A stretch of DNA of 25,029 nt from a virus (lineage: Duplodnaviria > Heunggongvirae > Uroviricota > Caudoviricetes): IMG/VR virus record IMGVR_UViG_2802429227_000004, positions 1 to 25,029 of that record; one strand, 5' to 3'. The position numbers and the translations under genes were made by a program. The notes beneath the pieces were generated by a model. It was not told the origin of the DNA. It saw only the letters and a list, made by a program, of their open reading frames with translations, and ran no database searches. Positions 1-20,011 of the stretch are shown piece by piece; position 1 is the stretch's first letter, and each line of letters starts with the position of its first letter.

Positions 1-159
1 ATGAAAAACATTGCAGCTATCAAACGTAATAACCGCAAGATTCACGCTCGTAAGTTCCTGTCTACGCCAGAAGGAAAAGCCTGGCTAGAGCGTAAACAGA
101 GAGAGAACGAAGAAAGAAAACTCCTTAGTGAGTTGAAATGGCTTAGAGAGGATTTCTGA
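1..159 (+). CDS. Hypothetical small basic protein (52 aa); may be the 3' part of a longer gene cut by the window edge
   Basis: ATG at position 1 in frame to TGA at 157..159; K/R-rich; below the ORF-track length cutoff. Confidence 0.25.
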   Translation: MKNIAAIKRNNRKIHARKFLSTPEGKAWLERKQRENEERKLLSELKWLREDF

Positions 160-430
160 AAATCTCCAGAACGCAACAGGACGCATTCTAACGCTGTTTT
201 CATTACTCGGTATAGGGATGTATAGGTGATGTGTGTTTAATGCGTCTGTGAGCTTGTTTTGTGCCTTATTTTGCATTTTCATAATGCAGGAGAGAACACG
301 GAAAGCCTTAAAATTAATTATTGGGGTATTTAAGGCTATTTTTAGGTTATTTAAGGGTATTAAACTTGATTTAATTGGTTAAAATATAAACAGATAGTTC
401 TGTATCTTATTGATTTATAAGGTTATTTTT

Positions 431-500
431 AAATAAAGGTAAATAAAAAATAAATAGCCATAAATAGCTATAAATAGCTATAAATACATCTAAATACCTA
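431..500. repeat. Tandem degenerate decamer repeats (TAAATAGCTA-like, about 5-6 copies)
   Basis: taaatagcca / taaatagcta / taaatagcta / taaatacatc / taaataccta read head to tail at 451..500, with similar taaata units just upstream. Confidence 0.7.
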
Positions 501-513
501 TATCCCTTCCCTT

Positions 514-897
514 ATGGCTAGATTGCGAGAGGTGCTTAACGCGATTTTCAGCGCCCCCCGATCTGGAAAATCCAGAATCCCCAAATATCAGCAAGGAATT
601 TTCTTGCGTAATCAACATCGTTTTTACCTATTAAATCATTACACAGAAAGCCTTTCTGTAATGTCTCTCACTAAACTTTCACTAAACACGAGAATGATCG
701 GTTTTATGTCGGATCAGATGCTAGAAACAGCACCACGTCTCACAAGGGCTGTAAGCGATGAAACCAGTGTTTATGCGGGTGCAGGTCAAAATATAGGCCA
801 AAATCCATTTAACATAATAAACGTAATATGCACTAAGGAACACATAGAACGCCTTGAATTGATGTATCAGGGGAAAAGTGATGGATTTTTTACGTAG
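514..897 (+). CDS. Hypothetical protein (127 aa)
   Basis: ORF-track ORF; no convincing RBS upstream (cccttccctt before the ATG); no recognisable motifs. Confidence 0.3.
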   Translation: MARLREVLNAIFSAPRSGKSRIPKYQQGIFLRNQHRFYLLNHYTESLSVMSLTKLSLNTRMIGFMSDQMLETAPRLTRAVSDETSVYAGAGQNIGQNPFNIINVICTKEHIERLELMYQGKSDGFFT

Positions 898-977
898 GAG
901 CACGAGAGGGCTTCTGTTGACTTTTGTATGCTATGAAATATAATTAAAGGTTTTTTGTTTTTATCGTGTGATGTAGT

Positions 978-1421
978 GGATTACACAGGGGGATAGATTA
1001 AATGGTGTTCTGTTTATACAGGTTTATTTGTTAGATCAACAATTTGGCATTTCTAAACAGATGTTTGAACGTTGCCAAATGTATTGACAACACAAGAAAA
1101 GGGCTTGCTATGCCACGCATTACACGAAATAAGGCTGTAAAAACAAAATAAATTTTAAAATTTGCACAAACGAGAAAACTCGTTCAGAAACAAGCAGAAT
1201 AATTTTTAGCCAACAATTTCTGATGGTGCTCTGTAAGCCGCATTACACAAGGCTTTGCGAAAGTGATGTAAAAGTGAAGAAAGCTAACATTGCACTTTGA
1301 AGCCATTTTTCATTGGATTTTTTAGTAGGGAATTACACAGGGAATAGAGAGCATTATTCTATGATTTACACAGGGAATATAGGGGATTATGGCACACACA
1401 TAGAAAGGCATTACACAGAGT
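978..1421. repeat. Iteron family 1: about 6 dispersed direct copies of a CATTACACAG-like motif
   Basis: ggattacacaggggg (~980), cgcattacacgaaat (~1119), ccgcattacacaaggc (~1241), gaattacacagggaatagag (~1333), gatttacacagggaatat (~1366), ggcattacacagagtg (~1409). Confidence 0.65.
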
Positions 1422-1464
1422 GAGTGCTATGTGATGATTGGTAGTAACGGTAGGTCATAGTGAA

Positions 1465-1602
1465 CTACCCCCACAGAATTCTGTTAATCTTAACTTTTAA
1501 AGAGATTTTTACCCTAACAAAATTCTGTTACCCCACCCTAACAGAATTCTGTTAGACACCCCCACAGAAAACTGTTAGACACCCCCACAGAATTCTGTTA
1601 CC
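1465..1602. repeat. Iteron family 2: 5 copies of a C-rich flanked palindrome, CCCCCACAGAATTCTGTTA
   Basis: Copies at ~1465, ~1511, ~1531, ~1557 and ~1580; core ACAGAATTCTGT is a perfect palindrome, as expected for a dimeric DNA-binding protein site. Confidence 0.7.
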
Positions 1603-2160
1603 TATTAGATCATTTATTAAATTACTTATTAAATTATAATATTATATATTTATTTATATGATCTTTTGCCTTCCGGCGTTAGCTTCACTCTCTGGCAAGC
1701 AGCCTTACTCCGCTACCTTTCGGGCTTCGTGGCTGGCCCGTTCCGCTCACACCGAAAGCAAAGCGTTACTTTCTTCGTGTAACTATCGTTGGCGGTAACG
1801 CCCACGAAGAAATACTATTGCGCTGTGCGCAGAAGAGTAATCACCTAACCAATCATACTGATTGCTTACGTGTTAACTCTCTCTAACTCTTAATTACCCT
1901 CCTACATTTAATAACTCTCGTTATTCTCTGTAGTTGTGTAATTACTCGAAGAGAGAGCGGCTAAAGCTCAATTACACTCTGCTTTCCTCGTGTAATTTCA
2001 CTAAGCCTCAATACAATTCCACTTCCACATTCTGTAGTCGTGTAATTGTTTTCGGTGGAAAAGCCAGAGGCGACACCGAAAGAGAATTCTGATCTTATTA
2101 ATCTTATCTATCTTAGTTATCTTACTTATCTTACTTACTTTATCTACTTTATTATTAATA
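1603..2160. promoter_or_regulatory. Origin-associated non-coding region: AT-rich tract (1603..1670), structured GC-richer segment with inverted repeats, GTGTAATT/AATTACAC repeats, TATCTTA repeats (about 2095..2150)
   Basis: No credible ORF; inverted repeat ttcttcgtg...cacgaagaa near 1770..1815; repeated ttctgtagt(t/c)gtgtaatt units near 1925 and 2025; atctta x5 around 2100..2140. Confidence 0.4.
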
Positions 2161-2678
2161 ATAGCTTTATAAGCTCTCTGTAGCTCTCTGACGCAAGAAA
2201 CAGCATTCAGGAAGGGAATCACCTTAGAAAAGTGTTCTTTGCGTCATAATGTGTTTTATGAAGGATTCAGAGGTGTTTCATAACAGGAATGTATAGAGGA
2301 TACTTTAATTAATTAAAAATAAGGGGTCTAAATGCTTCTCTAACAGCATTAAGCAGGGTAGAGAATGGAAACGCATTGTCTACATATATAATCTCACTAC
2401 AGGGCTTTACAGAGCGTTTTATAAAGTGACTCTCTGTTTTATATTTACCATTACCTTCTCATACACCTAACAAATACAAAATAAGCCCCTTAAATAAGCC
2501 TCTGGCGAGCTAAACAGCCATTAGATAAGGCAATGTATTTCTTTTATCAAAATCTCGTTAGAACGCGTTTTAGAGCGTTTTAGCGGATAATGAAGAATAG
2601 CACTACACAGAAGAGCACGAATAGCTAAGAAAAAATGTAAGTGCATGAAAAAGATCAGATTTTTTATGAAAAGGTATT

Positions 2679-2712
2679 GACAAATGTTTCTTTATATGTA
2701 ATAATAGGTATT
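2679..2712 (+). promoter_or_regulatory. Sigma70-like promoter candidate upstream of 2816 gene
   Basis: TTGACA at 2679..2684 followed by AT-rich -10-like hexamers (tatatg/aataat) about 17 bp downstream. Confidence 0.3.
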
Positions 2713-2815
2713 AGAGGGACAGAAAAACATTCTTCTCTAAATAATCAAAATCAATGCACTTTGAAGCCGTCAGGCTTGCAAGGTGTTTTTCTTTTAACTG
2801 AATAAGGAGTTTTTT

Positions 2816-3004
2816 ATGAAATGGTTTACCCCGGAGCACGTCGTCTCGGCATTTAAAAAAGGTGAGCTTACACGCCACCAAGTAGTAATGAATCGTAATA
2901 TGGCAAGGAGTCGAGGTTATCCAGAGCGAGCAGCTTGCTTCAATGAAGCACTCAAGATTATTGATGAATTAAGAAAAAATGAAAAAGAATCTGAAACAGA
3001 GTAA
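2816..3004 (+). CDS. Hypothetical small protein (62 aa)
   Basis: ORF-track ORF with AAGGAG RBS 7-8 nt upstream of the ATG. Confidence 0.5.
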   Translation: MKWFTPEHVVSAFKKGELTRHQVVMNRNMARSRGYPERAACFNEALKIIDELRKNEKESETE

Positions 3005-3023
3005 AGAATAGAAGGAGAAAACT

Positions 3024-3191
3024 ATGAGCGAAACCAAGAAACCAATTCCGCGCACTTACCTACACGTTGACCCTGAAATCTTCAAGGTTTTATTTGCTGA
3101 AGCCAAGAAAAGGCAAATTATGGTCAGTGATTTGATGTTAGAAATCATTACTGAAGCAGCAGAGAACATCAAACAAAAAAAGGGTAAGTGA
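3024..3191 (+). CDS. Small ribbon-helix-helix-like (CopG/Arc-type) putative regulator (55 aa)
   Basis: Not in ORF track (<60 aa). GAAGGAG RBS then ATG at 3024, TGA at 3189..3191. Translation MSETKKPIPRTYLHVDPEIFKVLFAEAKKRQIMVSDLMLEIITEAAENIKQKKGK has a beta-strand then helix pattern typical of RHH proteins. Confidence 0.45.
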   Translation: MSETKKPIPRTYLHVDPEIFKVLFAEAKKRQIMVSDLMLEIITEAAENIKQKKGK

Positions 3192-3242
3192 TCCTCATTC
3201 ACTTTAGTAGCGCATTAAGCGTGATTTATAAGGAGATTTTTA

Positions 3243-3896
3243 ATGATTAATGAAGAACAATTTGTAAAAGTTCCTATGTGGATTCTAAAAATAAGCCAAG
3301 TAAACGGGCATAAATTTACAGATAGTGCTAAAAACCTTTACTGCTATCTGAAAGGGTTTGATCGTGCATTTCCCTCTTACGCTAAGATAGGCGATGTTTT
3401 TGGCATAACACCAAGAGCAGCAGAGGAAAGGGTTAAGAAATTGCTCGAAATGGGATTAATTATAAAAGATGCACGACCAGGAAGTTCTAATGTCTATCAA
3501 GTGGTAGATATTCCACAAGAAGAAGCTAGACAAGAAGCCAAGACACAACAAGAAGCTACTGTTAAAGCTGTTCCTGATCAGCTTCCCCCTACGGAAGATA
3601 ATAAAGAGTCTTCTTTTGATGTTCTTGATGATTGGGATGCGCCTTTGCCGTGGGAGACGGAAGAAACACCTGTTTCATCAAGTGAAAAAGTAACTAATGA
3701 TAATGAGGAGGATGTGTTAGAGAATTTTGCCTCTCTTATCTGCCAGGAGAAAAACACCAGAACAGGAGGATCATCATTTATAGAATTTGCAAATTCACTA
3801 GCTTATAGACACGGGCTAAAACGACCAAATGGTATTGAGGCATATTTTGCTAAGAAACATCCCAAAGTATATGAAGACTTTGATATTCCATTTTAA
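3243..3896 (+). CDS. Putative replication initiator-like protein with winged helix-turn-helix N-terminal domain and acidic C-terminal region (217 aa)
   Basis: AAGGAG RBS; N-terminal segment (VPMWIL...NLYCYL...YAKIGDVFGITPRAAEERVKKLLEMGLII) resembles HTH domains of plasmid/phage Rep proteins; acidic DVLDDWDAPLPWETEE tail; sits next to iterons. Confidence 0.5.
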   Translation: MINEEQFVKVPMWILKISQVNGHKFTDSAKNLYCYLKGFDRAFPSYAKIGDVFGITPRAAEERVKKLLEMGLIIKDARPGSSNVYQVVDIPQEEARQEAKTQQEATVKAVPDQLPPTEDNKESSFDVLDDWDAPLPWETEETPVSSSEKVTNDNEEDVLENFASLICQEKNTRTGGSSFIEFANSLAYRHGLKRPNGIEAYFAKKHPKVYEDFDIPF

Positions 3897-3907
3897 TAAG
3901 GAGGGTT

Positions 3908-4186
3908 ATGATTCAATATTTAGTAAAAAATCAAGTAGACAGAATTCAGTGTAATGACACAGGAAAACGCATCTACGAAACACTTGCTTACCTCTATAAA
4001 GGAAAGCCAACACCGCTAAAATATAGCGATGTGTTACATCGAGCAGGGTGCTCTGAAGATGGTTTAAAATTCTGGCTGAAACAGCTATCAAACTTCGGTG
4101 TTATAGAGATTAAAGAATTATCTTTCTCTACATTCAATCTCAAAAGACTGGATAAAGAAATAGACTTCATCTATTCCACTCTCTAA
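3908..4186 (+). CDS. Hypothetical protein (92 aa), possibly a small DNA-binding protein
   Basis: ORF-track ORF with AAGGAGGG RBS; immediately follows the Rep-like gene. Confidence 0.5.
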   Translation: MIQYLVKNQVDRIQCNDTGKRIYETLAYLYKGKPTPLKYSDVLHRAGCSEDGLKFWLKQLSNFGVIEIKELSFSTFNLKRLDKEIDFIYSTL

Positions 4187-4318
4187 AATCTCTCTATGTA
4201 ATTAAAATATAAAAGGAAAACATTATTATGATAGTAGCTATGTATTGGTTATTGTTCTTTCTCACGTTAGAAACATATTTCGGGGTGTTTTCCTTTAAAA
4301 GAAAAGGAAAAGTAAATA

Positions 4319-4726
4319 ATGGCAAAAAGAAAAAACAACGTTGTTAAGAAAATCGGTGATTCAGCTTCTCTTCTAAGTAAACCTAAATCTATTCTAAGAC
4401 GTAAAGACTTTAAAGAGCTAGTTACGCTCACCAAGCATAATAGCGCCCCTGGCGAATGGAAAACAGAGATCATAGAACATTCTCCCTCTGTGCCTTGTGG
4501 AGATGAATTTAACGCCTTACAAGAAATCTTATCTTCAACACCTGGCGTATTCTGGAAACCTAGAAAAAGAAAAGAGTATATTGTTAGTTCTGACGAACTC
4601 CGCAAATACCAGATTTTAGGATTTGAAGACTATAACCACTACGTCGGTTATCTCGCCACCAATGGCCTAAATAATTTAGTTCCTGAATTCCATTTAGATA
4701 ATGATGATCACTATGGAGACTTTTAA
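4319..4726 (+). CDS. Hypothetical protein (135 aa)
   Basis: ORF-track ORF, basic N-terminus; antisense ORF 4267..4605 treated as a shadow. Confidence 0.5.
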   Translation: MAKRKNNVVKKIGDSASLLSKPKSILRRKDFKELVTLTKHNSAPGEWKTEIIEHSPSVPCGDEFNALQEILSSTPGVFWKPRKRKEYIVSSDELRKYQILGFEDYNHYVGYLATNGLNNLVPEFHLDNDDHYGDF

Positions 4727-4727
4727 T

Positions 4728-5063
4728 ATGAACAAAAACACGTATGACACAATTTATTCACTAATTAATTATTATGAGGATGATTACCTCCTGCCTTTAA
4801 ACCGTGCTGAACTTGAAGCACACAAAAACTCCACGCCAGCGGCACTAAATGAGGCGTTTAAACACTGGGATTTAGCTGTGAATGCCTTTGAGATGCTCTG
4901 TAAGCGTGTAGAGATGCTCTGTAAGCGTGAAAACGCATACCTGACAGCCGATCAGATATGGGAGCTATCAAACTGGATAGAAGATATTGAATCTGATGTT
5001 CGCTATGTGGGAGATGGCCTTATCGAACTCGCTCAACGCTTAGCCATTATCACAGAAGAATAA
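4728..5063 (+). CDS. Hypothetical protein (about 111 aa) containing a 21 bp tandem duplication
   Basis: ORF-track ORF 4701..5063; ATG at 4728 preferred because it follows the upstream stop with GGAGA about 10 nt upstream. In-frame tandem repeat gagatgctctgtaagcgtg at 4890..4931. Confidence 0.5.
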   Translation: MNKNTYDTIYSLINYYEDDYLLPLNRAELEAHKNSTPAALNEAFKHWDLAVNAFEMLCKRVEMLCKRENAYLTADQIWELSNWIEDIESDVRYVGDGLIELAQRLAIITEE

Positions 5064-5092
5064 AAAAAGCAACAAAAAAGTTGTAAAATATC

Positions 5093-5121
5093 TTGACATT
5101 TCATATATTGTATGTTAATAT
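5093..5121 (+). promoter_or_regulatory. Strong sigma70 consensus-like promoter
   Basis: TTGACA (5093..5098), 17 bp spacer, TAATAT (5116..5121). Confidence 0.6.
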
Positions 5122-5127
5122 AATTAT

Positions 5128-5345
5128 ATAGGGTGATTATTTTTCCTTTATTGGTTCGATATTAAAAATTCTTCTTGTCGTTAAAGGGGAGTAAAATCTC
5201 CGCTCCCCGCTTCTCCTCCTCCTTAAGTGTCATTATTACCTCTTTTTTCCTTTGTTATGCATACATCTTGGAGTATGCATAACATAGGGTAATTACATAG
5301 GTACAAGTTAATAAAAGGCGGCTCTAAATGCTGCCTTTTATTTTG
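5128..5345 (+). ncRNA. Candidate small RNA or structured leader/attenuator (about 215 nt) between promoter and intrinsic terminator-like hairpin
   Basis: Begins just downstream of the 5093 promoter; hairpin ggggag...ctcccc (~5186..5208); perfect palindrome ttatgcatac-N8-gtatgcataa (5255..5282); hairpin aaaaggcggc-tctaaat-gctgcctttt followed by a T-rich run (5313..5345); no convincing ORF on the + strand. Confidence 0.3.
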
Positions 5346-5406
5346 CCCGTTATACAACTTAAAAGTTGTATTTCTTACTTTAAACAAGGTAACAAGGTTT
5401 ATATAA

Positions 5407-5619
5407 ATGTTGTTTTTAAATGATAAAGAGCAAATCATCAAGTATCGCGATGAAATGCTAAAGATCAATCCACAAATTACCGAAATGGTAGCTAAATACG
5501 CTGGGTGTTCTGTCGAAGAAGTGGAACGTTGTGTTGAAAAATATTTTTCTCCTTCTTCTCCGTCTACACCTTCCCTTAATGAATTAATCAAATTAAAAGC
5601 TAAGGAGATTACTAAATGA
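5407..5619 (+). CDS. Hypothetical small protein (70 aa)
   Basis: ORF-track ORF; 4 nt ATGA overlap with the next gene suggests translational coupling. Confidence 0.45.
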   Translation: MLFLNDKEQIIKYRDEMLKINPQITEMVAKYAGCSVEEVERCVEKYFSPSSPSTPSLNELIKLKAKEITK

Positions 5620-5978
5620 TTATTGATTTAGACACTCTATTTCCAGTTCGAAAGACTTTCACAGATATTGTAAGTTATTGTACTGATCCGTTTGCCTCTG
5701 TAGAAAGCAAGGTTTTTGCTTCTCTTCCTGCTGATGTTGAATGCGGCGACTTGATCACCAGAACTGGCGCTAAATATGTATCAGGAGATGATATCTATGT
5801 TGTTATGAGTGAGTTTTTAACGGCTGGAGACAACAAGCCTGTAGATGTGCTACGTAGCAATGCTGGCCTTGTCTGCATCAAAGCTGATGCGCTGAATGCT
5901 GTAAGTGAAGCAGCAAAAACAGCATTAATTAAAAAAGGCTTCCAGCTTGAAGGGTTCCACTCTGTTTTCACTTCTTAA
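5616..5978 (+). CDS. Hypothetical protein (120 aa), first gene of a putative structural-like module
   Basis: AAGGAG RBS; tightly linked to the 342 aa gene. Confidence 0.55.
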   Translation: MIIDLDTLFPVRKTFTDIVSYCTDPFASVESKVFASLPADVECGDLITRTGAKYVSGDDIYVVMSEFLTAGDNKPVDVLRSNAGLVCIKADALNAVSEAAKTALIKKGFQLEGFHSVFTS

Positions 5979-5996
5979 TAAAAGGAATAATAATAA

Positions 5997-7025
5997 ATGA
6001 TTCTAGGCAATGATTACGTTGATTTGATCCCTCTGTTCCAGGCACACAACACTAGAAATTATCTACTCTCTACCCTTGATTTTACGGATTCTGTAGGGGT
6101 TACATCTCATAAAGTAGCTGTTTCCCAGCTTGTCGAAAGCAACGAATCTCTCTTTAACAAAGAGACAAGCCGTTTTAGTTCTGAACACAATGTTACTAAG
6201 CGTGAACAAGGTAAAGAATGGCTTATTGAAATCCCGTATTTTCTTCGTGAAGATGTGATCCGTCCTTCTGATGTTCAAGGCAAGCGTAAGCCTGGCACTG
6301 ATTTTCAGGAAACACTCACTGATATCTATGCTGACTATGTTGCTAAACACCACGTAGCGTATCAGCGTACAAAAGAGAGCGTGTTGGCGGCTTCTTTGTT
6401 CTCTGGCAAAACTTACACGCCTAAAACTGATGATGTTCTTATCGAGTGGGGCAAGCTGTTTAACGTATCAGCTATGAAAGCCACTGTGAACGCTTCCAGC
6501 ACTGACACCACGAAGATTTTTAAAGAATTTGATCAGATTGCTACCAATATTTTTGAAATCACACAAAGCCAGGCGTCAGCGGTAGAAAGAATTGTTGTTT
6601 TCTGTAAACCGGAAGCCTTCTCTGCAATTCGATTCTCTGCGGGTATGGCAAACGCATTCCAGTATGTAAGCCCACTGGAAGAAGGGAACGTTGTGTATCA
6701 GCGTCGTGACCTGCTGCCAGGGGTGACAGCGTTCACTATTCCAGGAACTAACATTGATGTTATTAAACTGGTAGATCCGCTACATCTTGCACATATGACC
6801 GCAGACGCTGTAGCTGTGCCTAAATTCGCTAAAGGCTCTAACGTATATCAGAACATCTACGGGGCTGCTTCCAGCACCTTTGAACTGATTAATGCCGCTC
6901 CCGCTGAGGTTTATAGCTACAGCTATGAATCTTCTCGTGGTGATGCTGTTAACGTTGTTACAGAGAATAGCCAGATGGTTGTAAACCACGGTGTAGGCTT
7001 CTCTGTTCAAATCACTGTGAAATAA
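5997..7025 (+). CDS. Hypothetical protein (342 aa); tentative homolog of the HK97-fold major capsid protein family of T7-like phages (gp10-like)
   Basis: Long ORF with RBS. Segment RIVVFCKPEAFSAIRFSAGMANAFQYVSPLEEGN (DNA about 6585..6700) matches, from memory, the T7 gp10 region RVFYCDPDSYSAILAALMPNAANYAALIDPEKG (pattern FCxPxxxSAI...MxNAxxY...EG); similar size to gp10A. Not verified by any search. Confidence 0.5.
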   Translation: MILGNDYVDLIPLFQAHNTRNYLLSTLDFTDSVGVTSHKVAVSQLVESNESLFNKETSRFSSEHNVTKREQGKEWLIEIPYFLREDVIRPSDVQGKRKPGTDFQETLTDIYADYVAKHHVAYQRTKESVLAASLFSGKTYTPKTDDVLIEWGKLFNVSAMKATVNASSTDTTKIFKEFDQIATNIFEITQSQASAVERIVVFCKPEAFSAIRFSAGMANAFQYVSPLEEGNVVYQRRDLLPGVTAFTIPGTNIDVIKLVDPLHLAHMTADAVAVPKFAKGSNVYQNIYGAASSTFELINAAPAEVYSYSYESSRGDAVNVVTENSQMVVNHGVGFSVQITVK

Positions 7026-7043
7026 TATTTTAACGTGTAATAG

Positions 7044-7080
7044 AGGCGTGGCGTGTATTCACGCTTCGCCTTTTTTTATT
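7044..7080 (+). terminator. Rho-independent terminator candidate after the 342 aa gene
   Basis: ggcgtggcgtg-tattc-acgcttcgcc imperfect hairpin followed by ttttttt. Confidence 0.5.
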
Positions 7081-7111
7081 TATTTTTTAAATTTTGAGAG
7101 GTGATTAAAAT

Positions 7112-7315
7112 ATGGAAGTGATTTTGAAATCAAAAAATGGTTTACACGTACATTTAGATGCTAATGATTCTAGAGGCTTGTTAAATCTGAAATATCTATG
7201 TTCTCTTTTAGATGTTCCATATGAAGGCGTAAAAGCCCGTATGTTCAGACTAAACGAGAGTATTGATCAGGCTCTACACCATTTCTTAAGTAAAGAAGGT
7301 GGTAAAAATGATTAA
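7112..7315 (+). CDS. Hypothetical small protein (67 aa)
   Basis: ORF-track ORF with GAGAGG RBS region. Confidence 0.45.
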   Translation: MEVILKSKNGLHVHLDANDSRGLLNLKYLCSLLDVPYEGVKARMFRLNESIDQALHHFLSKEGGKND

Positions 7316-7329
7316 TAAGGGGATTTTAA

Positions 7330-9162
7330 ATGTTAGAAATTAACACTTCTAAAATTAAGAACACAGTTACATTTAGTGTAGATAAAGACAGCTTGAAAAA
7401 AGCGAAAGACTCTATTACAGGCTTAAAGAAATTCGCCGAAAATATCAAGCCAGCTAAGCTGAGATTTGATAGTGTCACTAAAGGCTATAAGAAAGCACAA
7501 AGTGAAGTAGACAAGATTGCTCAACAGAAAGCTAAAACAGAAAAGCAGAATCAAAGAGCACAAGCTGCCGCAGCAAGAGCACAGGCAAGGCAACAGCAAC
7601 AAATAGCAGCACGTAAAGAGAAAGCAGAATTAAAGCTCCTCGATGTGTCAAGCTCTATCAGTGCAATGCACCGCCTTTCTGTAGCTGAACAATACAAAGC
7701 TATTGCACAGGCGCGTGAGATAGCCAAACAATACGAACAAGGGGCTATCTCGCTTGCACGTATGAATAGTCAGATGAAACGCCTACAACAGCAACAACGT
7801 AAGATTAATGGCAACAGAAAAGCTCAATTAGCCCCCGTTAAGGGAGGATCAGGGAATTCCGCCACGATGGGCGCTCTGTTATTTGGAGGCGCTACGGCTG
7901 CCGCTGGCGTGATGGCTGTTAGTAAAGCCTCTGAATTTATGGCTAACAGCTTCGCTAACGCAGAGACGCAAGGGGAGCTAATTCAACGGGCCAAGCTGGG
8001 CGGTGTAGACGTTAACCAGATGTATAATATTACAGAATGGGCGTATAAAAACGGCGTTGACTCTATGATGGGTGATCAAGGGGCTAGGAAATACCTGGAT
8101 CAGATGAAAGATGTTAGGGAACGTGCCGCAAAATCCTATAGTGAAGCTGAATTGGTGAAAGACAAGAAAACCGGAAAATCTGAATGGAAAGGCGGTGATA
8201 ACGCTATTAATGAACTTCTAAACATCGGTGTTATTAACAAAAGCGACCTTAAAAAATTTGCTGATAATCCGGCTGGATTAATTTCTAAGGCTGTTAATGG
8301 AATGATGAAAAAAGGGTTTTCAGACTCCCAAATTGGACAACGTTTAGAAGACCTGGGCGATGATTTGATGCTTACGTCAAAATATTGGCAACGTTCCGTT
8401 AAAGATGTACAAGAAAGTATTAATCAGCAAAAAGCCTCTGGAAAATGGCTAACAGAAACACAGCAAGACTCTATTGTTAAATTCAGAGAACTAAACAGAC
8501 AGCTTTCACAGCTTTCTGATGCAAGACAAGTAGCATTCGTAGACGGCTTTATGAAATCTCTTGATCCAAAAGTAACGGAAGAGTTTATGAAAAACCTTTC
8601 TAATCTCACTCCGTATTTTACGAAGCTGGGAGAAGCTACAGGAAGTCTCTTTGAGGCCATTATGAAGATTGTAAACTGGTTTAATCGTAATGATGATAAG
8701 ACAGATGCTATTCAGAAAAATTTAGGTGATGCACCGCCATTAAGCAATGACGGAATGAAACAGCATCTTTCTAATCTCGTTCCTGATCAATATAAAGGCG
8801 CTGGCACTGCAACAACAGCACCTGATAATAGTCATTCTCTCTTTAATACGATTAAGGGATGGCTTTTCGATGATAATGCTTCTTCTGTGTCAGATGTAAA
8901 AATGTCAGTCAATGAAGCACCGATAAGCAATCTCAAACAGGGTGCTTTAAATAATCTTGCAATGACAACTCCGGCTTATAATTTATCTCCTGTGTTTAAT
9001 CTGAATCCTACATTTGAAGTGGTAACAGAGGTTCCTCTTACTATTAATTCAGACACATCAAGATTAAGCGATTATGTGGATTTTACAGCGAGAGCAAGTC
9101 GGGATAGCTTCTTGAAATCATTAACATTAACCAGCTTATCAGGACAATCTAACGGCGGGTAA
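7330..9162 (+). CDS. Hypothetical large protein (610 aa): N-terminal K/Q/A-rich coiled-coil region, Gly/Ala-rich hydrophobic segment, then C-terminal globular region; tape-measure-like or ejection/internal-virion-like architecture (tentative)
   Basis: AAGGGG RBS; AQAAAARAQARQQQQIAARKEKAELK coiled-coil-like stretch; GGSGNSATMGALLFGGATAAAGVMAV hydrophobic segment; no Walker or nuclease motifs seen. Confidence 0.6.
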   Translation: MLEINTSKIKNTVTFSVDKDSLKKAKDSITGLKKFAENIKPAKLRFDSVTKGYKKAQSEVDKIAQQKAKTEKQNQRAQAAAARAQARQQQQIAARKEKAELKLLDVSSSISAMHRLSVAEQYKAIAQAREIAKQYEQGAISLARMNSQMKRLQQQQRKINGNRKAQLAPVKGGSGNSATMGALLFGGATAAAGVMAVSKASEFMANSFANAETQGELIQRAKLGGVDVNQMYNITEWAYKNGVDSMMGDQGARKYLDQMKDVRERAAKSYSEAELVKDKKTGKSEWKGGDNAINELLNIGVINKSDLKKFADNPAGLISKAVNGMMKKGFSDSQIGQRLEDLGDDLMLTSKYWQRSVKDVQESINQQKASGKWLTETQQDSIVKFRELNRQLSQLSDARQVAFVDGFMKSLDPKVTEEFMKNLSNLTPYFTKLGEATGSLFEAIMKIVNWFNRNDDKTDAIQKNLGDAPPLSNDGMKQHLSNLVPDQYKGAGTATTAPDNSHSLFNTIKGWLFDDNASSVSDVKMSVNEAPISNLKQGALNNLAMTTPAYNLSPVFNLNPTFEVVTEVPLTINSDTSRLSDYVDFTARASRDSFLKSLTLTSLSGQSNGG

Positions 9163-9195
9163 TTCCCGCCATAACATTACAAGGAAATTATTATT

Positions 9196-9909
9196 ATGGC
9201 GACCGCCGGGATTTTAACCATACGTGCAGCAAATACTCCAGAACAACACGTTCAGGCTGTTTACAAAGCAGAACAAGATATAAACTCTACAAAAAACGAA
9301 AATAGCAAAGCTAATAAAACAAAAGGAGAAAATGGATTTGCTATTGTTACCAGTGGGCTGGCATCTTCTGGCAATGACGTTTATGAAAATTATATGGCAC
9401 TGGCTTTTGACAGTGTAGACGATGTGAACGTGAGACGTTCGGCAGATGTTACAAGCTACCCCGTAGAAAATGGTGCTACTGTGTCTGATCACGTTCAAAT
9501 TAAAAACAATAAGTTTTCTCTTAAAGGTAGGATCACTGAAACACCGATTAAAAGCGATCCTGGCTTGCTAAAGAGTGCAGGGGTGAACGGGAACAGAAGA
9601 TCATTAGCTATTGATTACCTGAATCAGATTATGGACAGTAGACAGCCTTTTCTTCTTGTTACAGAAAATAAAACTTTTGAGAACGTTGTTTTAACAGGCA
9701 TCGAATACACAGAAGAGGCAAGCGAATCCCTGGTATTTGATCTTAGCTTTGAGCAGATCAGGCTCGTTTCGTATGGCACTGTAAACACTGTAGCTATCAA
9801 AACACAGCCATCTAAGAACATCGGGGCTAATATGAAAAAACGTGTTAACACTGAAAAATCAAGTAGTGAAGGTGAAGACACTATTACTCCTGCCTTTAAA
9901 CAGGAATAG
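9196..9909 (+). CDS. Hypothetical protein (237 aa), last gene of the + strand operon
   Basis: AAGGA RBS; no signal peptide; followed by an inverted repeat shared with the convergent integrase gene. Confidence 0.55.
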   Translation: MATAGILTIRAANTPEQHVQAVYKAEQDINSTKNENSKANKTKGENGFAIVTSGLASSGNDVYENYMALAFDSVDDVNVRRSADVTSYPVENGATVSDHVQIKNNKFSLKGRITETPIKSDPGLLKSAGVNGNRRSLAIDYLNQIMDSRQPFLLVTENKTFENVVLTGIEYTEEASESLVFDLSFEQIRLVSYGTVNTVAIKTQPSKNIGANMKKRVNTEKSSSEGEDTITPAFKQE

Positions 9910-9950
9910 CCGTAAACGCCTCTAAAACGCTCTGTAACGATGTAATTATA

Positions 9951-9984
9951 AAAGAGGCTACCAATCTATGTTGAAGCCTCTTTA
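9951..9984. terminator. Inverted repeat between convergent genes (possible bidirectional terminator)
   Basis: aaagaggct ... agcctcttt, a perfect 9 bp stem with a loop of about 16 nt. Confidence 0.35.
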
Positions 9985-9990
9985 TTGCGT

Positions 9991-11325
9991 CTATGGCGTT
10001 GTTTTACGCCTTAAATTTGATTTTTTATTGATTGATAAGCCTTTCTCTATTTCAGGGTAGCGTAGAAGCTCAATATATTTTTTAAGCTCTACTGGAGAAG
10101 CTGCATTCTTGCTATATGTGCGGAATGTCTCTGTATTACCGCGTGTATGGCCCAGGAGAAGGGCGATCCTGTCTTCTGGAATTTGATTTCGATCAAGAAG
10201 CTGTGCTACTCCGTGTCTCAGAGAATGAAACACCTTCCTTTCTGTTCCCTTTTCCCCTAAAGCCTTTCGTTTAGCCCTGGTAAATCTCTGCGTGTGCCAC
10301 GTGGAACGCTTGCCGTCTGCACGTTCTGTGATGCTGGCGTGATAGAACAAAAAGCCATTATGAGGCTTTTCACGCAGCGACAACACCAACGGAGTGATAA
10401 GGCTATGTACAGGCACAACACGTGCCGCAGCTTTCGTTTTTCCCTGTGTGATTTCAAAACACAGCACACCTTCGATCTCTTTCACATCGTCTATTGTGAG
10501 ACTTGCTATCTCATTGATCCGCATACCTGTATATAAACCGATAAGACACAAAGCCATCATTTCTTTGTTTTCTGCTGAATTACCGGAAAATACTTGCAAC
10601 ACCTGCAATAGCTCTTTGTTAGAAAATGCCTCGTAGCTCTCTCTACTTTGTGCCACATCAAGCCTATGCCCTCGCCAGGGGGAGAGCGCCCTTTCTGGTG
10701 CATCGTGGTAACGTGATGAAGCTAACTCCCATAGCTGGGCCATTGGGCTGATATAATTTGCAATTGATTGTTGTGAAAGGGTTTTTTGCATGTGTTCAAT
10801 CCAGCCTGTAACAGTGGTGCGGCTCACATCTTGCAATGCAATATCAGGCTTTTTACGGTAGGAGAGAAACATCTCTACCGCTTTTCTTGCCTTAGCTAAA
10901 GTGGCTGGCTTCTTCTTCGTGCTGTTAATTGTCAGGTAGATTTCAAGAATTTTAAGCAATGACGGACACGAAGACGCTGTATCTTGCATTCTGGTAGCTG
11001 TTTTGGCGTATTTAGCCTTACTGCGTAACAGCTCCAGCGTGTTCTCTATTGTGCTGTTTACAGGAGCGACACTCTCGCGTAAGCAATGGTATTCATCTGC
11101 AATCTGATCACGCTTTCTACGTGCAACACGAAGGTTACTTGTATGCAGACTCCTGACAAACGTCCTTTTTCCTTCAAAAAAGGGCTGCATATACACAGGC
11201 AGCGTGATCCTTAGATAGTAGTTACCGTAAGAATCACAGATTATGTATTGATTGGGCTTGTATCTCATAAACTCCCCGGCTAAAGTGTCGGAGCGTTTGT
11301 AATGTGAAAATTGATTGTAACGCAT
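9991..11325 (-). CDS. int: Tyrosine site-specific recombinase (integrase), 444 aa as given; alternative start at the second Met (about 11268)
   Basis: C-terminal catalytic signature: GMRINE (Arg), HSLRHGVAQ (His-x-x-Arg), LLGH (His), TFRTYSK (Tyr nucleophile). Confidence 0.85.
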   Translation of the reverse strand: MRYNQFSHYKRSDTLAGEFMRYKPNQYIICDSYGNYYLRITLPVYMQPFFEGKRTFVRSLHTSNLRVARRKRDQIADEYHCLRESVAPVNSTIENTLELLRSKAKYAKTATRMQDTASSCPSLLKILEIYLTINSTKKKPATLAKARKAVEMFLSYRKKPDIALQDVSRTTVTGWIEHMQKTLSQQSIANYISPMAQLWELASSRYHDAPERALSPWRGHRLDVAQSRESYEAFSNKELLQVLQVFSGNSAENKEMMALCLIGLYTGMRINEIASLTIDDVKEIEGVLCFEITQGKTKAAARVVPVHSLITPLVLSLREKPHNGFLFYHASITERADGKRSTWHTQRFTRAKRKALGEKGTERKVFHSLRHGVAQLLDRNQIPEDRIALLLGHTRGNTETFRTYSKNAASPVELKKYIELLRYPEIEKGLSINKKSNLRRKTTP

Positions 11326-11447
11326 AGAAAATGATGATTTTTTCTATAAGATTCAATCAATTAGTAATGGTCGTAGGTGATGGCATTAACACGAGATTAA
11401 TCGAGTGTTTTACTCCTATTATCGGCACCATTCTAACGTCTCCCCAA

Positions 11448-11597
11448 GTCTACTCAAGTATTTAAAAAACTCTTATAATCCGCATGTTAGCGCCCCTTTT
11501 AGTCTTTTGATGTCTACTTAAGTACCCCAAAATCTACAGTCAATTGGGGGTACTTTTGGGGGTATTTGCTGTTCGGTTTAGTGGAGGTACCCCCAAG
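11448..11597. repeat. Direct and inverted repeats in the 271 bp spacer between the two integrase genes (candidate att core or integrase binding sites)
   Basis: gtctactcaagta (11448..11460) and gtctacttaagta (11512..11524); inverted pair taccccaaaa (11523..11532) / ttttgggggta (11553..11563); extra ggtacccccaag at 11586..11597. Confidence 0.5.
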
Positions 11598-12811
11598 TGA
11601 AACTCAATGCCCGTCAAATAGACACTGCCAAGCCAAAAGAGAAGGCTTACAAGCTGGCTGATGGTGGTGGTCTGTATCTCTTGGTAAAACCTAGTGGAGG
11701 AAAATATTGGCGCTTCAAATATCGTGTAGCTGGTAAAGAGAAGCTGTTAGCACTAGGTGTGTATCCTGAAGTTACCTTGGCTGATGCTCGTGCAAAACGT
11801 GAAGAAGCTAAAAGGGGGATCGCTGGGGGTATCGATCCGATGGAAGCGAAACGAGAGGAAAAGATTGCCCGGGAAACGCAGTTAAACAACACCTTCAAAG
11901 ATATTGCCCTTGAGTGGCACAGCAGCAAATTAAAAAAATGGTCTGCTGGTTATGCTTCAGACATCCTCGAAGCCTTCAACAAAGATGTGTTCCCTTACAT
12001 TGGCAAAAAACCAATCGCCGAAATCAAACCACTTGAACTGCTGAATGTGCTGCGGCGCATCGAGGGGCGCGGTGCTACCGAAAAAGCCAAAAAAGTGAGG
12101 CAGCGATGCGGGGAAGTTTTCCGCTATGCAATTGTCACTGGACGTGCTGAGTATAACCCTGCACCGGATCTCACCAGCGCGATGCAAGGTCATGAATCTA
12201 ATCATTATCCTTTCCTCACAGCCAAAGAATTACCTGATTTTTTCAAGGCATTGTCCAGTTACTCAGGAAGTGCATTGGTTGTTATGGCGGCTCGTCTACT
12301 GATTATCACCGGTTTGCGGACTGGCGAACTGCGCGGTGCATTATGGGATGAAATCGATCTCAACAAGGCTATCTGGGAGATACCTGCTTCACGGATGAAA
12401 ATGCGTCGCCCTCATGTGGTGCCTTTGTCTAAGCAGGCTCTTTCGCTTATTGGGCAGATTAAAGAATTAACTGGCAATTATCCGCTTATGTTTCCCGGCC
12501 GTAATGATCCAAGGAAAACAATGAGCGAGGCTAGCATAAACCAAGTATTTAAACGCATCGGCTATAACGGAAAGGTTACTGGTCATGGATTCCGGCACAC
12601 CATAAGCACCATTTTGCATGAGCAGGGCTATAACACCGCGTGGATAGAGACACAGCTCGCACACGTCGATAAAAACTCAATTCGTGGCACATACAACCAT
12701 GCGCAATATCTGGATGGTCGCCGGGAGATGCTCCAGTGGTATGCCGACTATATGGATTCGCTCGAGCATGGCGGAAATGTGGTGCATGGTGAGTTCGGAA
12801 AATGCGGGTGA
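11597..12811 (+). CDS. int: P4-type tyrosine integrase (404 aa), GTG start
   Basis: N-terminus KPKEKAYKLADGGGLYLLVKPSGGKYWRFKYRVAGKEKLLALGVYPEVTLADARAKREEAK is the hallmark arm-binding domain of P4-family integrases; catalytic HGFRHT ... QLAHVD ... RGTYNHAQY. Confidence 0.9.
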   Translation: MKLNARQIDTAKPKEKAYKLADGGGLYLLVKPSGGKYWRFKYRVAGKEKLLALGVYPEVTLADARAKREEAKRGIAGGIDPMEAKREEKIARETQLNNTFKDIALEWHSSKLKKWSAGYASDILEAFNKDVFPYIGKKPIAEIKPLELLNVLRRIEGRGATEKAKKVRQRCGEVFRYAIVTGRAEYNPAPDLTSAMQGHESNHYPFLTAKELPDFFKALSSYSGSALVVMAARLLIITGLRTGELRGALWDEIDLNKAIWEIPASRMKMRRPHVVPLSKQALSLIGQIKELTGNYPLMFPGRNDPRKTMSEASINQVFKRIGYNGKVTGHGFRHTISTILHEQGYNTAWIETQLAHVDKNSIRGTYNHAQYLDGRREMLQWYADYMDSLEHGGNVVHGEFGKCG

Positions 12812-12909
12812 CTGGTTGAGTATACAGTAGTAGACTTTGAGCACCTAAAAAGGCTGATGCAAACAGAGCTGGCTCGGCCTTAACATTAGACCGCTTGAAG
12901 GGGGAGAAT

Positions 12910-13626
12910 ATGCCAATTGTGGAAAACATTCCTGACTTATCCCACTGGCGAACAATACAGGAGTTTTCTATCACCCAGGCCGCTTTATTGTTGGCCGGAA
13001 TTGATCCTTATGATTACCCTACTCTTGAACATGTCAGAGATAATAAACATGAACGTTGGAAAATGGCATGGGGGTTGGCTAATGGAATGGTAACAGCCAT
13101 CCGTCGTGGTGTCTTAACTCCTGTTGAATGTACCTCTGAAATAGTTGAATACGATAATTGGGGAAATGTTTGTGATATTGAGTACAAACGTCTGACATCA
13201 GCGCAACTGACCGATCGTGCATATGAGATAAGCAAGGATAAAACTTTAATTAGTCGCCATTCTTTATATGAGTGGATAAAAAATGAGAGCGTTGATTTTG
13301 CGAGATGCCCTCGCCCTATACCTGTTAAGGAAGTTAATCCGCCAGCAATCATTGAATCATCTCATCAGGTAATTAATCCTGACGAGTATTTGTGTACTTA
13401 TGGGCATAAGAGTGATGGGTTGGAGTATGTGCAGGATGCTATAAGAGAACTATGGTCGACGTATGACCCAGATGACCCACAGACGGCTCCGACAGAGCAT
13501 GAGGTACTTGAATATTTGAAAAAACGGGGGGCGGGTTCTAATGTTGCTAGGGCTGTGAATCTGATTTTAAGGCCTGAACATCTGAAGCGTATTGGTAGAA
13601 GACCAAAAAAACAAAAAGTTAAATAG
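12910..13626 (+). CDS. Hypothetical protein (238 aa) between int and alpA
   Basis: ORF-track ORF 12895..13626 begins at a TTG; ATG at 12910 preceded by AAGGGGGAG is preferred. No recognised motifs. Confidence 0.6.
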   Translation: MPIVENIPDLSHWRTIQEFSITQAALLLAGIDPYDYPTLEHVRDNKHERWKMAWGLANGMVTAIRRGVLTPVECTSEIVEYDNWGNVCDIEYKRLTSAQLTDRAYEISKDKTLISRHSLYEWIKNESVDFARCPRPIPVKEVNPPAIIESSHQVINPDEYLCTYGHKSDGLEYVQDAIRELWSTYDPDDPQTAPTEHEVLEYLKKRGAGSNVARAVNLILRPEHLKRIGRRPKKQKVK

Positions 13627-13881
13627 TGGTCGCTATTCCAGAAAAATGGTGGTTTCCTTTCAAAAAAAAGTAACCACCAATGCAGATTAAATCGTAAGAA
13701 CAGTAATTTTTCTTCGTGTTTCACGTCAGCATGATACTTAAAATAGTAAACGCCATTATTAAAAAAAGGTGGAGCTATTTCACTGAAATGGTATTCGCCA
13801 TTCATAATGGTAAGCATCTATAAATATCACTTTTCTTAATGCAAGCTATGTACACCTTTATAGACGTTACAAGGTGAATAT

Positions 13882-14079
13882 ATGGCAAACTCTCTTATTC
13901 GTTTAACGGAAGTTCAGCGTAGAACTGGATATAGCAAGGCATGGATTTATCGCCTTATGGGGCAAGGTAAATTTCCTGCATCAGTTAAAATTGGCTCGCG
14001 AGCTATTGCTTTCGTTGAGAGTGAAATTGACGAGTGGATTAATCAGCGTATTGCGGAATCACGCGGAACAGCTACCTGA
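13882..14079 (+). CDS. alpA: AlpA-family phage transcriptional regulator/excisionase-like protein (65 aa)
   Basis: LIRLTEVQRRTGYSKAWIYRLMGQGKFPASVKIGSRAIAFVESEIDEWI matches the AlpA HTH family; position just after a P4-type int; AAGGTGA RBS. Confidence 0.85.
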   Translation: MANSLIRLTEVQRRTGYSKAWIYRLMGQGKFPASVKIGSRAIAFVESEIDEWINQRIAESRGTAT

Positions 14080-14157
14080 TTAAATGGCTACGGGGCCAGA
14101 AGCCCCAACTATCCACTAGCAAATAAAAAGTAACTTAATTCGATAGCAGGAGTTTTT

Positions 14158-15006
14158 ATGAAACAGCGAAAAACGCCCGTACAGGGGCAGGGCTTCGTTC
14201 GGCCTGAAAACCAGAATCTGCAAAATTTCGGCGAAATTATCCCGGTTATTTCCGGCGTTATTGGCGGACGTGAAACCAATATTGTTAGCGCCAGAGCGTT
14301 GCATAAGGCGCTGGGTGTGAAGCGTGATTTCACAACCTGGATTAAAGGACGCATTGATGAGTACGGATTTAAAAAGGGCGTGGATTTTGAAGTTGTAGAT
14401 AATTTGTACTTTGATTCCCCGAAACGGGGGAACCAAAGTGTAAATATTGAACAGTTTGATTTTGATTGGACAACAAAGCGCGGCGGTGATCGTCGCAGTG
14501 AAGACTATTTGATCTCCACGAACATGGCGAAAGAACTGGCGATGGTCGAGCGCACCGAACAGGGCCGCGCCGATCGTCAGTACTTCATCAAATGCGAGGA
14601 GGAGCTACACAAGGTAGCGCCAGTGCGTTCCGCAGCGTTACGCCGGGAACTGAAAGCCCGTATCTCCGTTGCCAGCTACTTTAAGCCGATGTGTGCCGCG
14701 CTGGAGGCGTACCGGGCTGAACTGGGTAAAAACACACTCCAGCACCACTACACCACGGAAGCCAATATGCTGGCGCGTATCGTGCTGGGTGGCATGACTG
14801 CAAAACAGTGGACGCAGGCGAACGGCATCACAGGCGAACCACGCGACCACATGAGCACGTTGCAGCTTGAGCACCTTTCTTACCTTGAGCAGAGCAATAT
14901 CACGCTGATTGAGTTAGGCCTGGACTACCACCAGCGGAAAGCTGAATTAATTCGTCTTTCGCAGCGTTGGTTAGCCCGTCGCATGGAGGAAAACAGCCAT
15001 GTGTAA
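14158..15006 (+). CDS. Phage antirepressor-like protein (AntA-like N-terminal domain, KilA-C-like C-terminal region), 282 aa
   Basis: Segment VSARALHKALGVKRDFTTWIKGRIDEYGFKKGVDFEV resembles AntA/Rha-type antirepressor N-terminal domains; AGGAG RBS. Confidence 0.65.
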   Translation: MKQRKTPVQGQGFVRPENQNLQNFGEIIPVISGVIGGRETNIVSARALHKALGVKRDFTTWIKGRIDEYGFKKGVDFEVVDNLYFDSPKRGNQSVNIEQFDFDWTTKRGGDRRSEDYLISTNMAKELAMVERTEQGRADRQYFIKCEEELHKVAPVRSAALRRELKARISVASYFKPMCAALEAYRAELGKNTLQHHYTTEANMLARIVLGGMTAKQWTQANGITGEPRDHMSTLQLEHLSYLEQSNITLIELGLDYHQRKAELIRLSQRWLARRMEENSHV

Positions 15007-15420
15007 CGCTCTGACCGTTACAAAAAGAGAAAGCGCCCCGTTGCCGGAGCGCCTTTGTGAACGAATAGCCTACTGCGCCATATTGCTTACTGTCTACGAG
15101 GCAGATTATAGCGTTGTGGTCGCACAGAGTGAAGGCGCTGATCACCGTTACTACAGCACGCCAGAAATGCAGAATATTTTGCTGCAAAATGTCGTTGGTC
15201 ACGCTGTCCGGAAAGCAAAAAATTTTGCTGGTGGCGCGACTGATGCGATTTTGTCAGGTCGCAAGGTGATGATCAATCTGATGTCTAATTTCGTTCTGGA
15301 TAAAACAAAGGCGACCGCAGAGGGCCACCAGTGGGAAAGCTACACACTTGAACACATCGCCAACAATGCCAGATTTGCGGCTGGTGGGCAATGTGATCAG
15401 TGTGCTGGCTTGCTGGTGGG
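14999..15420 (+). other. ORF of uncertain extent; only about the first 130-140 codons of the 512 aa ORF-track call look protein-like, and the 3' end is undefined
   Basis: Start overlaps upstream stop as ATGTGTAA. After about codon 140 the translation becomes Cys/Ser/Arg-rich low complexity and runs across a well-supported minus-strand gene (15679..15984) and into gene 16172..16537 in the same frame. Confidence 0.25.
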
Positions 15421-15678
15421 CTATTCCTGCTCTTTAACATTGCCATGCCGCGATGTTTTCCAGGTATGCGACCCCATTTTTGTGCGCCTGTACTCTTTAA
15501 GGAATTTCTCAAGGATAAACGCACAGGGCGCGAATCTGTCTGACTCATATTCGTACGCTATCTTTCTGCGCTGTCTTTTCCGTGCCGGTGATGGTGTATT
15601 GGTCGATTCTTTGTTGGTCATTCTGTGTACCTGTAAAGCAATGCGCCGGAGTTCCTCACACCACGGCGATGATAGTTA

Positions 15679-15984: not shown

Positions 15985-16171
15985 GTGCATTCTCCTAAAC
16001 AAAAGATGTGATTCAGTATACACAAAAAAGAATCACAAAAAATACTTGACCTGTGATTCAGTTAAATTTAATTTAAATCACACCTCAGTAAGAGGATATA
16101 AACGACAACGCCCCGAACTGTTTGCGGCAGTAGCGGGGCGTCTAACCAAACCGTTAAATGAGGTAACGATT
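15985..16171. promoter_or_regulatory. Divergent promoter/operator region with TGTGATTCAG repeats
   Basis: gatgtgattcagtatacac (~16005), gaatcacaaaa (~16030), cctgtgattcagttaaat (~16049), aaatcacacc (~16075); TTGACC -35-like element at ~16045. Confidence 0.5.
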
Positions 16172-17531: not shown

Positions 17532-17535
17532 AACC

Positions 17536-19628: not shown

Positions 19629-19655
19629 TACGAAATTTATAAGCTGAAACGTAAA

Positions 19656-19991: not shown

Positions 19992-20011
19992 TTGTAACGA
20001 TGGGGCAAAGC

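Follow-up and report, generated by a model that had tools for sequence, protein, structure and literature searches.

A conserved promoter, structured RNA and terminator ahead of the morphogenesis genes of a satellite-like island in Escherichia coli

The window (the whole 25,029-nt stretch of DNA analysed here) is E. coli chromosome, and within it a 343-bp intergenic gap, running from the stop of a 120-aa orf (5063) to an ATG at 5407, raises the question of what function lies in the DNA immediately ahead of a set of capsid genes. A sequence-only reading had taken 5093–5345 for either a small regulatory RNA or an attenuator-containing leader controlling a capsid-like operon. The RNA unit found here is real, conserved and unannotated; its transcription, its termination, read-through as the drive for the operon, and the trigger of that read-through are what we infer from it. 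Of the two functions proposed, a leader for the capsid-like operon fits best, and our analysis tentatively favours, at slightly less than even probability, a promoter-leader-terminator gate for the capsid/tail operon, with an RNA possibly also acting in trans. Beyond the view of the earlier reading were the satellite-like host element, RNAs of 350–914 nt in its relatives, and two CAAC-N6-GTTG palindromes flanking the unit; that element and the large RNAs its relatives carry at this locus stand out as more unusual than the unit itself.

The unit sits in a ~12-kb island adjoining tRNA-Leu, in which all genes are on the + strand up to that of a Dit-like protein, followed by a tyrosine integrase gene on the − strand. 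The order is small orfs, a replication-initiator-like HTH protein (3243–3896, +; PHROG 270, E 3e-10), three to four orfs without assignment, the RNA unit, p70, p120, the major capsid protein (+; PF03864, E 3e-14), a terminator (T2), p67, the tape-measure protein (+; PHROG 16051, E 4e-53) and the Dit-like protein (+; PF21821, E 3e-29). Virulent myoviruses of the phi92 group (~148 kb) encode the closest counterparts of the tape-measure and Dit-like proteins (34–61% identity), while the capsid protein matches Pseudomonas myoviruses only (~25%). Searches of Pfam, PHROGs and NCBIfam with the small orfs of the island gave no match, and a single-sequence structure prediction for p70, of low confidence (pLDDT 63), was set aside. 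The island looks like a phage satellite of an apparently undescribed family: a literature search found no described satellite of phi92-like or rV5-like phages, and none encoding a tape measure.

The near-perfect sigma70 promoter reported earlier is confirmed, with an extended −10 in addition (5093–5121, +). TTGACA (5093–5098) is followed by a 17-nt spacer and by TGT-TAATAT (5113–5121), giving a score of 10/12 plus TGn (TG at 5113–5114; −10 TAATAT at 5116–5121). A search of the whole 25-kb window for the extended pattern TTGACA-N14-TGnTATAAT, allowing ≤2 mismatches, returned this site as one of two matches (2677 and 5093), both on the + strand and both within the element; shuffled sequences gave a mean of 0.42 matches, and two were reached in 6 of 100. 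Less demanding promoter-like sites (≥9/12) number 10 in place of 7.4 expected. Among 31 unique E. coli variants the −35 is without variation, and A2 and T6 of the −10 are kept in all 31. Scoring of the + strand from 5122 to 5965 for sigma70-like promoters yielded none, nor was one found between the predicted terminator T1 and the ATG at 5407. A resemblance to T7-like promoters (TAATA...TATAGGG) was discounted, since the conserved −35 and TGn indicate sigma70 and the distance from −10 to AGGG varies.

The transcript, a predicted non-coding RNA of ~215 nt (5128–5345, +; start and 3′ end both inferred), would start at A5128–G5131 within AUAGGGU (5128–5134), a placement made because A5128 lies 7 nt 3′ of the −10, and would end in a U-tract at ~5340–5345. 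No orf of at least 40 aa exists on the + strand at 5063–5407, as the earlier reading had it. On the opposite strand, an orf at 5223–5591 (122 aa, TTG start) was ruled out, having 9-, 10- and 17-nt indels inside it and overlapping p70. The ~215 nt of structured RNA postulated earlier is borne out by the fold of the 218-nt RNA, at −61.5 kcal/mol compared with −39.5 ± 4.1 for shuffled sequences (z −5.4; 0 of 200 shuffles as low), and each of the three hairpins or palindromes pointed out in it is found at its coordinates. Little structure is predicted for the first ~58 nt. Hairpin 1 (5186–5208, +) pairs GGGGAGU with GCUCCCC across a 9-nt loop (−12.2 kcal/mol, z −2.8; pair probabilities 0.92–0.97), and hairpin 2 (5248–5289, +) has a perfect 12-bp core (5253–5264/5273–5284), four more pairs and an 8-nt loop (−21.3 kcal/mol, z −6.7; pair probabilities ~1.0). 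Between them is a variable pyrimidine-rich linker (5209–5247, +), containing CCUCCUUA at 5218–5225, which we take to be identical to the 3′ end of 16S rRNA. In the MFE fold a segment of this linker pairs with the 5′ UAGGG, a low-confidence pairing that is missing from the centroid.

The last hairpin, earlier described as terminator-like, has the form of a canonical intrinsic terminator, T1 (5310–5345, +), with a GC core (GGCGGC/GCUGCC; 5317–5322/5330–5335), an A-tract/U-tract extension and a 7-nt loop (UCUAAAU). Its stem spans 5313–5339 when the A/U extension is included, the U-tract UUUUAUUUU occupies 5336–5344, and the hairpin at 5310–5342 has −17.8 kcal/mol (z −6.1). The hairpin/terminator scan overlooks T1 because part of the T-run pairs with the upstream A-run. 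T1 ends ~65 nt upstream of the first morphogenesis gene, and the intervening leader contains a small palindrome or hairpin, AUACAACUU-AA-AAGUUGUAU (5352–5371, +; perfect 9-nt arms, −7.6 kcal/mol, z −5.1), just beyond the range of the earlier reading (5093–5345), followed at 5383–5409 (+) by two tandem copies of AACAAGGU (Shine-Dalgarno-like AAGG) and the ATG (5407) of the 70-aa p70. A T4-late-like TATAAATA before this ATG was dropped, being well placed in one group of relatives (group D) only. T2 (7043–7075, +; −20.6 kcal/mol, z −6.4, then U7), also a predicted intrinsic terminator, lies directly 3′ of the capsid gene and 5′ of the p67, tape-measure and Dit-like genes.

Rfam 15 at gathering score gave 0 matches in the window or in five related loci (L003, L004, L006, L007, L009); at E ≤10 there were 11 sub-threshold matches, the best being STnc250 (E 0.49) and rpsL_ricks, which rest on the terminator alone. 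RefSeq has nothing annotated in the gap in any E. coli copy. Among 50,697 phage records (megablast, blastn) no homologue of the RNA unit was found, the matches being weak promoter look-alikes in ~115–139-kb Aeromonas and Erwinia phages (E 0.1–0.3).

Of 5426 complete E. coli genomes, 307 carry the island, always with a full-length gap (89–99.7% identity); carriers include strains KSC64, CH4804, NGF1 and the O26 strain H19. In 32 E. coli copies, nucleotide diversity (pi) is 0.019 in the promoter, 0.022 in the 5′ region, 0.019 in hairpin 2 and 0.015 in the terminator; apart from hairpin 1 (0.000), it is lowest in the post-terminator leader (5346–5406; 0.008). Third codon positions of the flanking genes have values of 0.048–0.169 in the same copies, so that promoter, hairpins and terminator show 3–10 times less variation than these neighbouring positions. 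Variable columns are concentrated outside the stems (4 of 64 in stems vs 52 of 162 elsewhere; Fisher p 2.6e-5), and all indels among the copies (1, 2, 3, 4, 9, 10 and 17 nt) fall within two linkers. The linker at 5209–5247 has the highest diversity of the unit and ~20% gaps; its UCCUCCUUAAG core, which is anti-Shine-Dalgarno-like, is present in every E. coli variant. Given indels of 1–17 nt and the absence of a + strand orf, the region is non-coding, and it is under purifying selection, with constraint on promoter, helices and terminator.

Stem pairs are intact in the 26 unique RNA-region sequences, one sequence excepted. The sole common polymorphism in hairpin 2 changes U5262-A5275 to U.G (13 of 26 unique sequences), and in the hairpin at 5352–5371 A5354-U5369 becomes G.U, with G at 5354 in 24 of the 26. 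Changes of these two kinds preserve pairing in + strand RNA only, which places the structure on the plus strand.

A long structured leader with a terminator directly before an operon could also be a classical cis attenuator or riboswitch, switching folds on a ligand, a tRNA or translation. The helices argue against this: all three keep pair probabilities of 0.92–1.0 in terminated and read-through RNA alike (T1, 0.95–1.0), and these probabilities reveal no competing antiterminator fold for T1. There is also no leader peptide, nor any Rfam riboswitch or leader match at gathering score. With no competing fold the unit is not a classical attenuator in our reading, and a mechanism of this type is very unlikely. 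Since T1 has no alternative fold, read-through would need a factor and not an RNA switch. The earlier proposal of an attenuator-containing leader therefore survives in its leader half, which agrees with the position and strand of the unit in five groups of relatives, the lack of a closer promoter and the presence of T2, and fails in its attenuator half.

Capsid-profile scans identified 109 related loci, which divide into five groups (A–E; the window belongs to A) by their upstream DNA. Capsid proteins are 55–98% identical across the groups, and the gene order p70, p120, capsid is kept. Representatives of all five share one layout, consisting of promoter, AGGG(G/T), an orf-less structured RNA, terminator, small hairpin, RBS and p70, and the position and strand of the unit are unchanged despite the divergence of the groups. 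Sigma70 promoters, often with TGn, are seen in each, and AGGG(G/T) lies 7–10 nt 3′ of the −10 in all. An equivalent of T1, with compensatory stem changes, precedes the first morphogenesis gene by 45–110 nt in 91 of 93 related loci, and a terminator follows the capsid gene, at the position of T2, in 70 of 86. The small palindrome at 5352–5371 likewise has an equivalent in the representatives of each group, its sequence being group-specific.

The RNAs themselves differ greatly in length, from ~215 nt (A, including the window) to 353 (D), 550–700 (C), 772 (E) and 914 nt (B). Four long RNAs at the homologous position (L003:4457–5370, L057:4577–5348, L004:4778–5325 and L100:4971–5323) fold far better than shuffled sequences; the z-scores obtained at the homologous position are −7.05, −7.35, −5.8 and −7.9. 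Folding and covariation analysis across homologs had been proposed as a check on the unit, and it returned clear covariation in two alignments of the long RNAs. In group C (28 sequences), 87% of cells are paired vs 42–45% with slid partners, with 42 double-change pairs (16–23 with slid partners) and a covariation score of 0.226 (0.06–0.09). In groups B and E together the corresponding values are 94% vs 42–45% of cells, 43 vs 10–14 double-change pairs and 0.109 vs 0.034–0.043. The RNAs of the relatives fold better on the plus than on the minus strand, and some loops of the long ones are conserved, for example GCAUCCACA in groups B and E. A boxA-like CGCUCUUUA was dropped, as it is confined to some group C relatives, where it is part of a helix, and the window lacks it. 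Profiles (nhmmer) of the group B, C, D and E RNAs detected no sequence homology in the intergenic region of the window, so the link across groups is one of layout and synteny only; such a lack of sequence match is expected at this divergence.

These comparisons bear on the simplest rival, in which the gap serves no dedicated purpose and AT-rich spacer DNA, a promoter look-alike and the upstream operon's terminator have come together by chance. AT-rich DNA is rich in promoter-like sites, as the count at ≥9/12 illustrates, and T1 could merely end the early operon. Diversity 3–10 times below that of synonymous sites, a layout conserved in five groups and the covariation in relatives nevertheless make an accident of this sort hardly credible.

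The flanking palindromes suggest another rival, a mainly DNA-level element in which palindromes and hairpins are protein-binding or packaging/replication sites (operators, pac/cos, ori) and the RNA is incidental. An upstream palindrome, CAAC-AAAAAA-GTTG (5070–5083), lies 10 nt 5′ of the −35, and the palindrome at 5352–5371, in the 5′ leader of p70, holds a second CAAC-N6-GTTG, so that the two bracket the RNA unit. The sequence CAACNNNNNNGTTG occurs in the window at 5070 and 5355 only (expected 0.39), and equivalent TAAC-N6-GTTA pairs can be made out by eye at both places in the aligned sequences of some relatives from group C. The upstream copy is unchanged in all aligned E. coli copies but one (L010; a 2-nt deletion plus substitutions); as an RNA hairpin it is weak (−4.3 kcal/mol), and it may serve as an operator or mark the end of the early operon as a weak hairpin. 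The neighbouring p92, with its predicted winged helix, would also suit a DNA-level function. Against this, G.U-type stem polymorphisms break DNA symmetry, the relatives show strand-specific covariation and better plus-strand folding, and promoter and terminator are kept across groups while the palindrome sequences are not. Indels of 9–17 nt between the palindromes in E. coli copies would in addition upset helical phasing, and DNA looping between the two was dropped for this reason. A role mainly as DNA is accordingly quite unlikely. Regulation of the promoter at the DNA level would nonetheless be allowed by the flanking CAAC-N6-GTTG palindromes together with the predicted winged-helix p92, a point that weakens the gate reading.

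The orf encoding p92 (92 aa; 3908–4186) is predicted to form a winged helix-turn-helix, with a core pLDDT of ~80. Its Foldseek matches to PefI, PapI, MarR and ArsR domains (PDB) are weak (E ≥ 2e-3), and on this model the protein is a candidate binder of the palindromes that flank the RNA unit.

The gate is preferred because no other sigma70-like promoter precedes p70 and because a second terminator follows the capsid gene. In such a gate, the unit would be an autonomous sigma70 transcription unit between the replication module (to 5063) and the morphogenesis module. RNA polymerase would start constitutively at the near-consensus extended −10 promoter, make the ~215-nt non-coding RNA with its two very stable hairpins and stop at the Rho-independent T1. 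A resting element would produce the short RNA only, with capsid and tail genes off; a factor overriding both T1 and T2, supplied by an infecting helper phage or by the element itself, would lead to their expression. The terminated RNA may act in trans too, as StxS of Stx phages does. Several points weaken the case for a gate. The element yielded neither an antiterminator gene nor a nut/qut/put-like motif, the presumed helpers are virulent myoviruses, and we know of no antitermination system in phi92-like phages, whose tail proteins those of the element resemble. A helper-specific promoter in 5346–5406 is possible.

The closest likeness is to the late control of lambdoid phages. In Stx phages a constitutive late promoter yields a terminated leader that is both a by-product and a functional, Hfq-binding sRNA, StxS (PMC7547250). 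Judged by its sequence features, the unit resembles lambda PR′-6S/StxS-tR′ in having a sigma70 promoter directly before morphogenesis genes, a short structured transcript and an intrinsic terminator, and further terminators within the late region, as in lambda, are represented here by T2 (in silico). No Q-like family was found in any orf of the element, nor was a Q-binding element or a convincing sigma-dependent pause element; a weak GATTAT (+8 to +13) is the sole −10-like hexamer early in the transcribed sequence. The setting also differs, being a ~12-kb satellite-like island with virulent-myovirus-like tail proteins, no sequence similarity to lambda, and leaders of up to 914 nt in relatives. 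HK022 put RNA and lambda nut sites are promoter-proximal RNA hairpins that act in cis on polymerase and lead to read-through of terminators; the hairpins here are likewise promoter-proximal, but no sequence or structural match to either was established.

P4 provides a comparison from a satellite. Its CI RNA is processed out of a leader; by pairing with the seqA/seqC sites of its own transcript, it causes termination before the replication genes. The present unit would share with it a satellite leader RNA, a constitutive promoter and premature termination silencing downstream genes, while differing in its intrinsic terminator, in the structural nature of the genes that follow and in the lack of a match to a related Rfam family (C4/CI absent even below threshold). 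Inverted repeats that might pair in this way are weak, limited to 5134–5151 with 5423–5440 (78%) and 5233–5246 with 5382–5395 (79%), each 14–18 nt.

The main rival, possible if rather doubtful, is that the ~215-nt RNA is a stand-alone regulator in trans, pairing with host, element or helper transcripts or sequestering a protein that acts on them, while another promoter, located past the terminator and dependent on the helper, drives the capsid operon. The unit is discrete: it has a strong promoter to itself and its terminator ends in a long U tail, and in this it resembles Hfq-type sRNAs (own promoter, Rho-independent terminator with U tail) as far as can be read from the DNA. The 5′ ~58 nt of the RNA, although largely unstructured by prediction, hardly vary in E. 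coli (pi 0.022), the exposed UCCUCCUUAAG is kept in all variants, and the long, structurally conserved RNA bodies of the relatives hint at a function at the RNA level. Precedents exist in StxS (PMC7547250) and in SviR of Vibrio cholerae, an sRNA encoded by the satellite PLE for which experiments demonstrated action in trans on transcripts of both ICP1 and PLE (10.1101/2022.04.08.487710). Like SviR, this would be a non-coding RNA from a virulent phage's satellite, one that is conserved throughout the family of satellites and tied to structural-gene regulation; unlike SviR, no target was found for it here, and sequence, position and host are different. Searches for targets speak against action in trans: the 50,697 phage records hold no extended complementarity beyond AT-rich promoter look-alikes, none was detected elsewhere in E. 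coli genomes, and duplexes with the 13 translation starts of the element are unremarkable (best z −2.6, equalled by 1 of 100 shuffles before correction for 13 tests). The downstream operon, moreover, has no promoter of its own in the scans, and the unit lies directly upstream of it in every group.

RNAs of 350–914 nt with conserved structure exceed what a simple gate would need, which suggests that the body of the RNA does something in its own right. A broader reading, which we consider unlikely, is that the RNA of the window is the smallest member of an unrecognised class of large (0.2–0.9 kb), highly structured, fast-evolving RNAs that invariably head the morphogenesis operon in an undescribed family of Enterobacteriaceae satellites encoding capsid and tail. 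The RNA body, and not the terminator alone, would then sense or interfere with a virulent phi92-like helper. It could bind a helper protein or RNA and so license read-through, or act on the expression of helper structural genes.

Should the gate be correct, the unit would be what switches on capsid and tail genes in an island widespread in E. coli (~6% of complete genomes, O26/O111 STEC among them), and fusions to promoter, leader and terminator would give a direct handle on the signal that the element senses and on its helper phage. The RNAs of 350–914 nt, with covariation and without an Rfam family, would add a new family, associated with phage parasitism, to the large structured RNAs of bacteria. 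On a more modest reading, the unit would be an abundant unannotated RNA in pathogenic E. coli, worth recognising in transcriptome studies.

The other extended −10 promoter of the window (2677–2815 with its leader; TTGACA-17-TGTAATAAT) heads the early/replication operon and is followed by AGAGGGA and a ~100-nt leader with a hairpin, GAAGCC-GUCA-GGCUU, a design that may parallel the unit at 5093–5345. A stretch of ~1.9 kb (900–2800) contains no orf >73 aa and no RefSeq annotation, and is bounded by two 11/12 sigma70 promoters (917–944 and 2677–2705, both +). Patches within this stretch (1145–1346, 2404–2798, 1044–1080 and 1685–1750) retain 75–95% DNA identity even in relatives whose capsid proteins are 62–72% identical, and the stretch might serve as an origin or a packaging site, or encode a further RNA. 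At 4890–4931, the 120-aa orf upstream of the unit contains an in-frame 21-nt tandem duplication (GAGATGCTCTGTAAGCGTG..), giving EMLCKRV-EMLCKRE.

The island (window 1–11400; loci L002–L109) lacks terminase, portal and protease genes, and relatives of it also occur in Citrobacter, Enterobacter, Klebsiella, Kluyvera, Buttiauxella and Scandinavium. A second island abuts the first (11597–25029), beginning with a P4-type integrase gene (11597–12811, +) and consisting of a long + strand gene array with a G+C content of 45–59% vs 33–45% in the first. In strain CH4804 (L001:9393–10727) the capsid gene is split by an IS3-family insertion. One contig (L008) is labelled as a ‘Bacillota bacterium’ MAG; its island is near-identical to those of E. 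coli, and it is therefore probably mis-binned.
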